A stretch of 64,000 nucleotides of DNA, taken from positions 58,528,001 to 58,592,000 of the forward strand of contig OZ024747.1 in NCBI GenBank assembly GCA_964016885.1. Direction: 5' to 3'. Shown piece after piece: positions 1 to 59,790 of this stretch. The DNA is from Eledone cirrhosa. Its lineage: Eukaryota. The translations under genes and the position numbers were made by a program. The notes beneath the pieces were generated by a model, which was given only the letters and a program-made list of their open reading frames with translations, was not told where the DNA came from and did not search any database. Numbering within the stretch: position 1 is the stretch's first letter; every line of letters starts with the position of its first letter.

Positions 1-255
1 AAGTCAGAAGTTCATATGTCAGTCAATAAAGTTTGTTTTGATTGGGCAATAGTTCATAGGGATGTTTTTGACTGGCCAAACGCGCGTCACCAATCAATAA
101 ATGTAATGAAGGAGTAACCAATGTCCTTCTTATCTTTTCACTATAATACACTCTGTATAGCTCTACACCTCGACACTGAAGTGAACCTAAACATCGAGTG
201 CTCATCCGGGTGAACTCGAGTGAACCTACAGTAATACCAAGTTACACCGCCTGGA
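1..255 (+). mobile_element. PLE-derived insert: decayed HHR plus 3' tail, cut by the window edge
   Basis: TTGATTGG (38-45) can pair with CCAATCAA (90-97) around cAAA-CGCGCG-TC; GAGTGCTC at 196-203; ends in (TA)n. Confidence 0.5.
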
Positions 256-267
256 TATATATATATA

Positions 268-755
268 TACTAGACTTGAAAAATGCTCAAGCTCAAAAGA
301 ACCACAGAATGTTATAATAACCCTTCAAAAGTGTGGGACTAGAGTTGTTGCTCAAAAATATTGTAATCATTATCTATAGTACACTCTGTGGCATCCTTTT
401 ATAAAAAAAGAGACTCATAACGAACTCAAGACGACACGATAATTATTTAAGCTAATGTTCAATAACTCATATTAGATGTTTAGTAATGATTAATACGAAA
501 TGCACTTAAATCGAATTCTATATTATAAATTCACTTAAATAATTATCGTGTCGTCTTGAGTTCGTTATGAGTCTCTTTTTTTATAAAAGGATGCCACACT
601 GTGTACGATTACAATATTGTTGAGCAACAACTCTAGTCGCACACTTTTGAAGGTTTATCATAACATTCTATGGCTCTTTTGAGCTTGCGCATTTTTCAGG
701 TCTAGTTTATATTTTTTTAAGGCAACGCTTGTAATAACACTAGTTAAACGTGACA
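268..755. repeat. Inverted repeat (arms ~268-451 and 534-706) with short 3' tail, PLE-like architecture
   Basis: Arms are near-identical reverse complements with an ~82 bp spacer; starts at (TA)n; no HHR core found. Confidence 0.8.
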
Positions 756-1694
756 TATATTAATAATAAATTATCGTTGTAATGTAATTAGATTATATAA
801 TTGTTATTTTATAAATGATCTTATTAATATTATTGTAAGATGTATAAAAGTATTTTCAAACTTTTAAAAGTTAATATAAATTTTAAAAAATCATATATAA
901 ATTAACAATATAACTTACCAAAACAAGAAAAATATTTTGATGATAAACGACGAAATACTGGAGGAAGATTCGAATGCGAAACGATAAATAACCGTGGAAA
1001 CAAAGTGGCGGATGCTTTTGACCAACAATTACTCTCGTTGGTTGAGTAGCCAATAAGACGATGAAATTAGCCAATAAGACGATGCATTACAAAACATGTT
1101 TGGGAGACATCACCACGGCCAGCGATACCCTTTGAATGTTTTATTCACAAGCAACGCATATATGTCAGAAGACACGCAGACATAAAACATTCTGTTGTTA
1201 GTCACTGCGTGTCTAACAGATATATATATATATATATATATATATATATATATATATATATATATATATATATATATATATATATATATATGTTCATGTC
1301 AAACTAAGAAGTAATCTTATTCCTTACCATGTGTGTCAGTTAATGGGAACTGAAAATTTACTACGTCAGGTAGTTATACTGGATTGAAAACTTTGCAAGC
1401 TTCATTTATGTACAGCATATATTGTTAATAACTATGTCACTATCAGATGTAACTTAACAACATCATTAGTGAAAATTCAAAATCTGTAATTAAGCGGTTT
1501 AAAAAATGTATCCTATGCATGAACAATACAATATGTTTACTCAAAAGCTTGATATGTTGAACAAGACATGAGACTTGTACTATAAAGTTATATATGAAAG
1601 TAATCATATGTTGTAGCAATTCTATTTGCCAACAAGGTATATATATGTATGTATTTATTTATGTATGTATGTATGCATGCATGTACGTATGTAG

Positions 1695-2635
1695 GTTCTT
1701 CTGGTTTTATAATTTCACAAATTTTTACCAATAGAGAGAGAGTCGGTTTCTAACATAGACACAAGACTCTCTCATTGGAATTTACACAAGCTCAACTAGG
1801 TAGATTATGTATGCATGCCTGGATGCATGCATGTGTAGATATGGATGTTATTGGTTGTGTGGATGTGTATTTTTGAGTTGTATGTGTGTATGCTTTGTAT
1901 CTGTACATGTGTATATGCAGTTATAAGATACAATATTTTTGGCATGTTTTACATATTTTTACTGTTCCATTAATGGATTGTACTTGTAATTTCCTAACTA
2001 GTTGTGTTCTTTCTGTTCCTGCGAAGCCTAACTTCTCAAGATTTGTATTGAGGCAGTTACTAACATAACCCAGTGCCCCAATAATCACAGGCATAAATCT
2101 GAAGGTGTCATCAGGGTGGAGTATCTGCAGATTTCTCATCAGTTCTGCATAAATGATCTCCTTTTCGCTGATCTTTGATATTTATTTTGGCATCTGCTGG
2201 GCAGCTAATTTCCACTACTCTGCATGCTTTCTTTTCCCTGCCCCATATCATAATATCTGTTCTGTTATACCTGCATTTTATTGGGGTTTTTACTGGCACA
2301 TTCCACCAGTACTCTTTCATATTATGTATCTGGATGTCTTCCACATTGCTGTAGCTTTTAATGTGTTTATTATCGGGGCTATCTTTTCTACGGATTGCAT
2401 TGTACAGTGTTTTGGCCACTATATCATGCCTCATAGGTAGATAGTACCGCTATGACATCTTTGGACAGCTGTTGATGACATGGGTGACATTTTCGATGTT
2501 AATTCTGCAGAGTCTGCACTTGTTATCACATCTTGGTGGTTTCATGCAGATAGACTTGCTCGAGAAGCGGGCTCCTACGCTTCGAGGTTTGTAGATGTTG
2601 TCAGAAGGATATGATGCGACATTCAAATGCTGTCT
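1695..2635 (-). mobile_element. Non-LTR retrotransposon 3' fragment with CCHC knuckle and restriction-like endonuclease (R4/Dong/NeSL-type), degraded
   Basis: CRLC..ENVTHVINSC, RHDIVAK, WWNVP, NRTDIMIW..VVEISCP, PVIIGALG spread over ORFs 2450-2752, 2111-2434 and 1921-2139 (stop and frameshift); 3' UTR runs into a (TACA)-type repeat. Confidence 0.88.
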
Positions 2636-2685
2636 GGACATATGTATGTATGTAAGTATGTGTTTATGTGTGTGTGTGTGTGTGT

Positions 2686-2790
2686 GGCCAAACACTCTTG
2701 GCGCCGCGGACGGGATTTTACATATCCCTATACCCAATCTGCATCTTTCCATGCATCGAGTACTCTCATGATTAGTGGTCTCCAGACTCT
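2686..2790 (+). mobile_element. PLE tail fragment, related to 32536-32700
   Basis: GGCGCCGCGGAC..TATACCCA..GAGTACTC matches the reverse complement of 32560-32645. Confidence 0.65.
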
Positions 2791-57400: not shown

Positions 57401-57857
57401 TTCAATAGTACGACCTTCAGGACGCAACACGGACAGGATGGATTTTACAATTCCTGAGCAAACGGACAGAGTAACAATGTAATAAGATATAATAAGCAAT
57501 CACTCACTCTCATTTTCATTCTCTCTCAATAAGATAAATCTACCGATAACGAGGTTAGTACTAAGAAGCGTTTAATTGCACCTGGTATGGGTCTAGCGTG
57601 AAATTAATAAAATTATCGCTCCTGCTTCTAGAGGATTAAGAAATATTTTGTAAATTAATAATAGGAGATACATTATACACACAAGCAATACATTTAATAT
57701 TTAATATGAGGTTCTTAACGCTTCAATACATTGAATGACAACGTTTTATTATATCCACATTAAAATCGAATCCTTACTAAACCTATTGGGGTTTCCTTCG
57801 GTTCAAATTATTTATCATTCTTACTTGAAATAATTGTACATATTCGACAACATAGAT

Positions 57858-57955
57858 GAGGGTTAAAGAGCTGGCCTCGTGATCGCAAGATCGTGGGTTT
57901 GACCCTCGACCACAGCCGCTCATTATATCATTGAGCCAAACTTTAATTTTTACGC
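57858..57955 (+). mobile_element. Degraded tRNA-derived SINE head
   Basis: GGTTAAAGAGCTGGCCTCGTGATCGCAAGATCGTGGGTTTGACCC resembles a tRNA body with a B-box. Confidence 0.55.
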
Positions 57956-58814
57956 TAATCCAGCTGAAAATAAATATCAGCAACAGTAATGCTTAACGTT
58001 AATATAGGCTGGCGTTCCATTTTATGGCAAATCTTTTACCCTTAATGGCATAAGGCTACGGGGAAACGGAGGAAGACCTGGCTTTTGTCCAACTCGTGCC
58101 AGCATGAGAAAACAGACGAATAATCGACCACGGTGGTTTTGATGACAATAGTGATGATGATGATGTGGTTGATGATGATGATGATGGTAGTGATGACAAG
58201 GATTATGAGGAACATTATGAGTTGAGTGGGAGGGTGGTGGTGTTGATGATGATGGATACACAGAAAGGGGAAAGCATCGCACAAAATTATTTACAGTAGT
58301 TAAGGTAATTTTAAGTTTTGATGTTAAAATAAAATACTTTGATTGATCCAAGCTCCAAAAGGAAAGTACCAATCAATTAACTGAAATCAATCTAATTGAT
58401 TGTACCCCTCCTTCACTAAAATTGACGTCCTATGACTGCGTTAGAAATCCATATTTTGGCGGTTGTTTTTATATCTTTATCCCAGGTCAGTACTGACCAA
58501 TCATGCTATGATGAAAGTGACACGTGTTTCATAGGAGCAGGAACCCAGTTACTTTGAAGAGTGTTATGGTTTGATAGTTGCTATTTCTATTATGTACAGA
58601 AGCTTGTGAACATTTATTGTACTTCCATCTCTCACTAGTTTACCCGTCAATTTTCGAGTATAAAATTGTTGATGATGAAATAGAATTAATTTGTACGATA
58701 TCATTCCTTAATATTAAATAATCTTAGTCAAGGCAAATGGGTGAACCGAACCGATTACCCTGTCTCAGCTGGACACATGGACACACACACTGACATATAC
58801 ATATACATATATAT

Positions 58815-59060
58815 AAATAGTTACAAAAGTGATATAAATAGTTACAAAATACATGTACTTAAGTTCCGTTGGGTTATACACCCCAGCTCATTCAGCATGT
58901 TCTTTTTATAACAGGCTGAGGGAGTTTGGTTGTATAACTCGAAGAAACCTAAGTACATATATGTCACTGTTATAACTAATTATACTTAACTCGTCCTATG
59001 GACTGAGTGCTCTTACACTTGGATATTTCTACCAAACCTTTACGACCAAACGTTTAATTT
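58815..59060 (+). mobile_element. Old fold-back PLE insert sharing the tail of 53519-53657
   Basis: Imperfect IR 58853-58880 versus 58931-58958; ACTCGTCCYATGGACTGAGTGCTC shared. Confidence 0.6.
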
Positions 59061-59338
59061 ATATTACTTAACGTACGGGCAAGTAAACATGTTTTTGTAG
59101 GTACACAGAGATTCATAATGGCATCCAATTAATCGATACAGAATAATCAACTCGTACAACATTAAGATGCTGAGGAATAAAAGTGTACTCGAGAATATTC
59201 TTCAATTATTAATCGGATACCATCATGAAAATGTAAGTATCTACGAAACCATGGCTAGCTGCCATGTGTTTTAAGTTATATATATATATATATATATATA
59301 TATATATATATATATATATATATATATATATATATATA

Positions 59339-59790
59339 TACAATATTAAATAAATGGAAAACTATATTTATAAAACCATATTTATTTCATTATATATATT
59401 TCGGGGATATCATATTAACAATATGCTATGCCTTCATCAGACAAAATACAATATAAACAGTTTTATAGATAAATATATTCGACATACCGTAATAAACATC
59501 GACTTCATTTGAAGAGGTTTACTCTTCAAATGAAGTCGATGTTTATTACGGTATGTCGAATATATTTATCTATAAAACTGTTTATATTGTATTTTGTCTG
59601 ATGAAGGCATAGCATATTGTTAATATGATATCCCCGAAATATATATAATGAAATAAATATGGTTTTATAAATATAGTTTTCCATTTATTTAATATTGTAA
59701 ATATACTCCAAATATTTGTCGAGTGCTTTTATATCAGTTATAAATATTTACTAGTTGTAACCCAACAATTTTAAATATAACTTTACATGT
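59339..59790 (+). mobile_element. Hairpin element (178-bp arms, 5-nt loop 59517-59521) with HHR (59591-59654, mirrored) and ~90-bp tail
   Basis: TTTTGT-CTGATGA-aggcatagcatatt-gtt-aatatgatatcccc-GAAA-TATATA-TA-ATGAAA; arms appear identical. Confidence 0.9.

Follow-up and report, generated by a model that had tools for sequence, protein, structure and literature searches.

The 64,000-nucleotide stretch of Eledone cirrhosa analysed here, hereafter the window (assembly GCA_964016885.1, contig OZ024747.1, positions 58,528,001 to 58,592,000), carries truncated and fold-back copies of Penelope-like elements (PLEs) that share a short hairpin. An earlier note had described this hairpin as ACTC-N12-17-GAGTRCTY at the start of the unduplicated tail of unrelated element families. 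We found that the motif is a bulged stem-loop of the form RCTC-[covarying stem-loop]-TN-GAGY-NCT, and that it is a genuine and conserved cis element belonging to a known clade of retroelements, the Hydra clade of PLEs. It occurs at two sites of the element, termed H1 and H2, and inserted copies end a few bases 5' of one or the other. The families of this genome were lettered A to K. The hairpins and insertions in the window are the following.

150..203 (plus strand): H1 of family G with a 42-nt interior; tail to ~254, which is 3 nt before the H2 of read-through copies
2736..2765 (plus): decayed H1 with the 5' strand AATC, then a (CT)n tract
11483..11566 (plus): H1 (GCTC..GAGC, long interior) and tail of family H, with the end at the H2 site
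11716..11743 (minus): decayed H1, family-A-like
20669..20691 (plus): H1 variant GAGT-ACC; hammerhead upstream in relatives
21638..21709 (minus): family A copy with 5' truncation, H1 (21682-21709) and tail, with the end at the H2 site
21730..21814 (minus): putative minimal hammerhead-like motif upstream of H1, a U3-A8 core variant with palindromic loop III, seen by eye
22794..23117 (minus): Hydra-type GIY-YIG endonuclease remnant of the truncated family A copy
23220..23292 (plus): inverted tailless arm of that family A copy, stopping before H1, seen by eye
40122..40542 (minus): fold-back of family C, H1 at 40175-40203, one end per site
43998..44284 (plus): fold-back of family B, H1 at 44200-44223, one end per site
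47796..47823 (minus): H1, family-A-like, outer stem intact and inner stem decayed
48497..48687 (plus): fold-back of family A, H1 at 48616-48643, one end per site
52051..52356 (plus): fold-back of family H, H1 at 52269-52317
53526..53657 (plus): putative hammerhead core, H1 (53598-53621, 1-nt bulge) and tail of family D; H2 not found
54076..54331 (minus): fold-back of family H, one end per site
54676..54722 (minus): decayed H1, its stem kept by a relative in locus L094
58989..59012 (plus): H1, family-D-like, without a nearby (TA)n
59341..59789 (plus): fold-back of family B, H1 at 59705-59728, one end per site
61543..61617 (minus): H1 (61590-61617) and tail of family A, with the end at the H2 site

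All GAGTRCTY sites listed in the earlier note are present in the window, the one at 20684 as a GAGTACC variant. The outer stem is intact at 10 of the 14 sites (196, 20684, 21682, 40175, 44216, 47796, 48636, 53614, 59005, and 59721), while the hairpins at 2758 and 11716 are decayed. Those at 8157 and 43646 were unsupported: CA replaces the TN bulge and no inner stem is formed, and the motif is not kept in relatives of 8157. At site 196 the interior is 42 nt long rather than the proposed 12-17 nt. The strand needed correction for the hairpins at 11716, 21682, and 47796, which lie on the minus strand; GAGTACTC is identical when read from either strand. Absent from the earlier list were the hairpins at 11483-11531 and 52269-52317 (both of the GCTC..GAGC form), 61590-61617 (minus), and 54683 (minus, decayed).

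Starting from the endonuclease remnant at 22794-23117, we found near-complete copies whose open reading frame (ORF) has ~720 residues. Judged from protein motifs and a published supplement, the hairpin carriers are Hydra-clade PLEs, a clade defined in the accessible part of PMC8557442 by RW[KR], DKT, CxCX5C, CxxC, and CxH. The first motif reads RLRWR in locus L051, RLRWI in L052, and RMRWK, RMRWR or RIRWR in families I, E, G, and F. DKT, changed from DKG, was present in families A, B, E, F, G, H, and I, and family A has the CxCX5C linker as CNCPDRSIC, followed by a GIY-YIG region at the C terminus with YIG, CNLCSEE, and CKH but no CCHH. The families that had been called unrelated all belong to this one clade. 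Pfam gave no family for the full Hydra ORF or for the Hydra endonuclease remnant of the window, and matched GIY-YIG only in a non-Hydra PLE remnant of the window.

Putative hammerhead ribozyme cores (CTGANGA..GAAA) were recognised by pattern and by eye in the pseudo-long terminal repeat (pLTR), and the core ends 47-78 nt upstream of H1 in 14 representatives; no hammerhead was among the best 150 of the 232 Rfam rows for the window. Hammerhead and hairpins are separate elements, and the ACTC/GAGT carried in stem III of some Hydra hammerheads should not be confused with the motif. The family A hammerhead (window 21730-21814; L051, L052) appears to be a U3-A8 core variant with a palindromic loop III, a variant reported for Schistosoma PLEs in the available part of PMC4209133. 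The family A unit is ~3.5 kb long with a 1.3-kb 3' untranslated region (UTR), Hydra elements being generally <3 kb, and ~0.3 kb follows the ORF in family D. The Hydra ORF ends upstream of the tails in families A, C, D, F, and H, and starts downstream of the hairpins in families A, B, C, E, F, G, H, I, and J, while family K has no direct tie to an ORF. Its twin hairpins (L293, L270, and related loci) have no ORF start directly after H2, and the family possibly has a long 5' UTR or is non-autonomous.

The motif is abundant in the 3.0-Gb genome. Strict ACTC-N12-17-GAGTRCTY matches numbered 62,248+62,535 (124,783), compared with 1,480+1,472 (2,952) for the reversed-pattern control, and the compensated GCTC..GAGC form gave 7,763+7,631 matches against 272+278 with its pattern reversed. 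Together, the two strict patterns have >140,000 matches in this genome. At 30 unselected loci along one contig, the majority lay 3' of a hammerhead-like core, with a (TA)n following after a few tens of bases. The hairpin interiors ranged from 6 to >60 nt. Among the best 150 of 232 Rfam rows for the window, no model reached its gathering score, and nearly all were microRNA models on microsatellites or fold-backs. The 32 pattern matches in viral contigs included no relative. The Naiad and Chlamys consensi contained a few exact matches to the 3' half, none in a hairpin context where shown, though line breaks can hide matches.

The stem was evaluated with 67 element 5' ends, which formed 28 clusters at 65% protein identity with a median of 42% between representatives. 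When the 3' half alone was searched without a pairing requirement, the exact 4-nt complement stood upstream at 45 of 46 sites. Pairs were then counted from fixed anchors in 44 hairpins from the 28 clusters, leaving out a doubtful hairpin of L173; a MAFFT alignment of 41 hairpins was not structure-aware and went unused. Compared with a shuffle that ignores relatedness, inner pair 1 was Watson-Crick in 42/44 (C-G 29, T-A 13; shuffled mean 24.0), pair 2 in 30/41 with all four types (11.1), pair 3 in 18/32 (8.4), and pair 4 in 14/27 (7.4). The pairing run appeared only with a 2-nt bulge, and bulges of 0, 1, and 3 gave none such. The T closing NCT was invariant although the search did not impose it, whereas it did require the bulge T and the NCT C. 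Inner pair 1 differed between the sites, being T-A in 12/22 H1 and C-G in 20/22 H2, and among the 44 hairpins an A-T outer pair was seen only in H1 of the Eledone cirrhosa genome. These results indicated that the stems covary across families less than 65% alike in protein, as the earlier note had proposed to check.

In read-through copies from ten families of this genome, H2 follows H1, and both lie between the hammerhead and the ATG. A gap of 55-99 nt separates the two hairpins of such copies. The H1-H2 spacing was 76-101 nt in references from the ten families, and H2 stood 19-69 nt upstream of the ATG. A twin pattern had 431 matches against 0 in the control, and a family C twin pattern 200 against 0. 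A 58-bp satellite dominated the initial twin-pattern search, and its loci (L114, L115, and L131-L159) were excluded from all counts. This tandem satellite (G000:C1, ~14.23-14.27 Mb) accounts for hundreds of matches; its unit contains a family-A-like H1 and a TA-rich stretch, and it may be a tail segment amplified through repeated priming.

The hairpins were also found beyond this genome. In a metagenome search with motifs from the Hydra proteins, of which the best 80 of 392 stretches were used, 54 of 77 Hydra loci had a strict hairpin match. Upstream of 60 metagenomic ORF starts, GAGYRCT occurred at least twice in 41, once in 12, and not at all in 7; several of the single-hairpin cases were cut by contig ends or had one-letter variants, and variant hairpins were visible by eye in 5 of the 7 5' ends without GAGYRCT. 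By eye, in the accessible part of the PMC8557442 supplement, the published consensus of Hydra-1_Ajap from a sea cucumber has both hairpins at its start, and those of Hydra-2_Ajap and of the coral element Hydra-2_Amil stop ~24 nt past one hairpin.

The ends of inserted copies were determined in an unbiased sample of 614 kb chosen without regard to the motif (the window and 55 further stretches), where 68 of 84 matches to the references ended in (TA)n. Of these 68, 65 stopped 0-12 nt 5' of H1 or H2. With looser alignment settings and family D excluded, 67/71 (TA)n ends fell 0-12 nt before a hairpin, while 12.0 would be expected for any TA/AT site. The rule held for 201/216 ends at other loci (38.9 expected) and for 8/9 metagenomic ends. 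Offsets ranged from 0 to 10 nt, with the mode at 7 for H1 and 3 for H2, and the junctions shared 0-5 nt of TA microhomology (mode 3). TAT or ATA was present within 12 nt before 35/44 hairpins, compared with 13/44 and 20/44 in control windows. The positional enrichment was sharp. In some copies of family D and others (L353-L364; window 2758-2880 and 23280-23295), a (CT)n tract separates the element end from (TA)n, possibly reflecting priming slippage or a compound target.

The tails measured 66-103 nt, tracking the spacing of each family. H2 was absent from nearly all inserted ends, though the ends lie 1-10 nt before it. The earlier note, from whose picture H2 was missing, had placed the element end 30-65 nt from the first hairpin; the end is instead determined by the second hairpin, located just past it and usually left out of the copy. 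Its observation that the hairpin starts within ~10 nt of the stop of the inverted arm was borne out, with offsets of 0-10 nt in 32/32 unbiased H1-class ends (class window 0-12). The tail is the H1-to-H2 interval, because fold-back insertions have one end at each site, and H1 is the only hairpin copied into it.

All 24 unbiased fold-backs had one H1-type and one H2-type end, including three pairs in which a family D tail end was classed as H2 by position only; without family D the count was 21/21. At all loci up to 8 kb, 71 insertions were classed, as H1/H2 in 70, H1/H1 in 1 (L051), and H2/H2 in 0. No partner was found for 32 of the 80 unbiased ends. Among 19 fold-backs with arms of unequal length, compared by eye, the tailless arm was longer in 11 and the tailed arm in 4, with 4 left without resolution; some of these loci had been chosen through the endonuclease, and in 14/66 insertions the arms could not be called. 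Where the tailless arm is the longer one, it cannot have arisen by snap-back copying of the tailed arm, and priming of both arms on the template is therefore likely. In the H1/H1 insertion (L051, 802-5875), a 4-kb arm comprises a full unit and part of the next, and 16 nt of (TA)n separates it from a family C insertion. One arm of L052 (952-5322) extends across an entire unit, the two hairpins, and the hammerhead and on into the unit before it, which fits an uncleaved tandem RNA or a circular template. A circular template has been proposed, in the available part of PMC4209133.

Because copies end a few bases before each hairpin, the pair likely specifies the start point for the copying enzyme. 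The reading that we favour, with a probability of roughly 0.7, is that the twin hairpins and the ends 0-12 bases before either reflect RNA docking sites, each of which makes reverse transcriptase (RT) start just 5' of it. The end positions and the covariation likewise support the suggestion that the hairpin is a cis signal, whether for the PLE RT/endonuclease or in 3'-end formation. In such a mechanism the endonuclease would cut both (TA)n strands, and two RT-endonuclease subunits would occupy H1 and H2, in the simplest case on a single RNA. Each of the cut DNA ends would anneal by 0-5 nt of TA microhomology beside one hairpin and prime complementary DNA (cDNA), and the two cDNAs would join head to head. 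The H2-primed arm would then carry the H1-to-H2 interval, that is, the tail including H1, and the H1-primed arm would lack it. Hairpin binding, a dimer, and action at the RNA level are inferred parts of this likely mechanism; a two-copy fold of residues 1-480 gave neither support nor a verdict.

Several observations weigh against docking on RNA. On a single RNA, the H2-primed RT would need to traverse RNA that synthesis from H1 had already copied. The window also contains a non-Hydra PLE whose two ends are 44 nt apart and which lacks the motif, so tails in general do not require it, and as far as tested the element is specific to Hydra. The hairpin of family D has a 1-nt bulge, and two pattern searches found no H2 there, besides its tail ends being classed by position. 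There are the one H1/H1 insertion and 8 pairs with an unclassed end. By eye, in the accessible supplement, Hydra-1_Obim has no visible hairpin, and Hydra-1_Amil and Hydra-1_Crog have imperfect ones. As to relatedness, a quick tree of 24 ORFs showed at least 5 changes at H1 pair 1, but the supported independent contrasts, 3/3 concordant (p 0.25), were too few for significance. G-U and A-C were equally frequent at pair 2 (3 vs 3), and folding above 0.5 was obtained for 30/44 sense and 25/44 antisense hairpins, neither of which separates RNA from single-stranded DNA.

The hairpins might instead act in DNA, with the endonuclease recognising them in single-stranded cDNA or an extruded intermediate and cutting just 5' of each to resolve the insertion. 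Craig et al. attribute the tail to endonuclease-mediated resolution (PMC8557442, in the part available), recognition by the D. virilis endonuclease required the tail (cited in the available part of PMC11167929), and the pair types do not favour RNA. We nevertheless consider this unlikely. It must explain how H2, absent from nearly all ends, fixes ends 1-10 nt before it; the junctions show TA microhomology with the target, as for priming sites; and the Anolis enzyme starts internally on RNA in vitro, according to the same portion of PMC11167929. The end positions would fit equally well if the hairpins directed cleavage of the RNA just 5' of each, followed by ordinary target-primed reverse transcription from the two new 3' ends. 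About half of the insertions should then be H1/H1 or H2/H2, however, whereas 1/71 was, and the offsets vary from 0 to 10 nt, following the nearest TA stretch, which leaves this a poor prospect.

Slightly less credit still was given to a role of the hairpins in translation or in assembly of the ribonucleoprotein, for example after hammerhead cleavage, with the ends set only by adjacent TA-rich stretches. H2 does stand close to the ATG, TA-rich stretches precede both hairpins, and both roles could coexist. Yet the other TA/AT sites of this AT-rich region are unused (67/71 vs 12 expected), and the offset holds across families with unrelated flanks and different spacings. Shared ancestry of one recent repeat family, the alternative raised in the earlier note, was rejected on protein divergence, compensatory pairs, and long tree branches, and we give it almost no weight. 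A few families do supply most of the genome matches. But the carriers are not one recent clade, as the families of this genome sit on long branches; the median protein identity of the carriers is 42%, loops and linkers are unrelated, and the motif recurs in the coral and sea-cucumber consensi of the accessible supplement.

Going beyond docking itself, we see about an even chance that two matching docking hairpins on a retrotransposon RNA let it load a two-headed RT-endonuclease, with both cut ends priming at fixed internal positions in a single concerted event. If true, two-headed loading would account for the one-sided tail of PLEs and for their head-to-head insertions, and a portable hairpin of ~25 nt could program the start of target-primed reverse transcription inside any RNA, even a circular one. 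Since the element is short, conserved, and covarying and obeys an exact positional rule, the mechanism is testable with few RNA mutants. In repeat annotation, the motif can also be used to predict where Hydra families truly end.

Other features of the window were noted. The non-Hydra PLE (24161-24840; L365-L382) has DKG, a CCHH-type endonuclease, and a (TA)n target, with 24,689 first-look candidates. Its two discrete ends, free of the GAGYNCT motif, often occur one of each per insertion, and each end is followed by a small stem-loop of a different kind. An inverted repeat of 503 nt and 97% (59821-60323 and 60969-61471) encloses a 645-nt core, is flanked by TA, and looks like a separate element of the terminal-inverted-repeat type. 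A minisatellite of 28 copies of 29 bp occupies 44575-45400, and a helicase fragment lies at 50512-50844 on the minus strand, which we take to resemble Helitron Pif1-type helicases.

In the accessible part of Craig et al. (2021; PMC8557442), the Hydra clade was described with a hammerhead, (TA)n targets, and inverted copies with a one-sided tail. The elements analysed here share these features, together with RW[KR], DKT, CxCX5C, and, at the C terminus, a GIY-YIG without CCHH. The hairpin is present in the consensus sequences published there, while the available main text lacks the word 'hairpin' and uses 'stem' only for hammerheads. The tails found here are 66-103 nt long, compared with the 30-40 given in that text, which states the origin of the one-sided tail and of the inverted insertions of PLEs as open. 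Palindromes had been proposed to arise from self-priming on an antisense template (PMC3846280, in the part available). No description of the hairpin element or of the end rule was found in our literature search, whose coverage stopped short of subscription journals and Repbase.

The closest parallel is the Poseidon enzyme PAc of Anolis, which in vitro starts reverse transcription at two internal RNA sites bounding the tail (Frangieh et al., 2024; PMC11167929, accessible part). Both DNA strands were extended, RNA 3' of the start sites was required, and a dimer was predicted by AlphaFold2; the determinant of the two sites was not identified in that text. The elements described here resemble PAc in having two discrete ends and a tail on one side only. 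PAc belongs to a different clade, however, with one AC-rich stem-loop and no repeated element reported in the available text, and by eye the 96 RNA letters of its Fig. S1 contain no GAGY-NCT hairpin. The PAc start sites lie in the ORF and are described there as non-homologous to the target, whereas here they lie in the 5' UTR and share TA microhomology with it.

Compared with long interspersed elements (LINEs), including LINE-1 (L1), the element found here differs in lying 3' of each start and in being present twice. RNA stem-loops that recruit or position RT include the 3' stem-loops of LINEs and short interspersed elements, the template-boundary helices of telomerase, and the hepadnavirus epsilon. 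As far as is known, the stem-loops of LINEs lie 5' of the start and get copied. In L1 twin priming both target ends prime on RNA, and to our knowledge it has no fixed second site and no duplication. The RTs of PLEs form the sister group of those of telomerase, a link on which an RNA element fixing the start of copying has a bearing.

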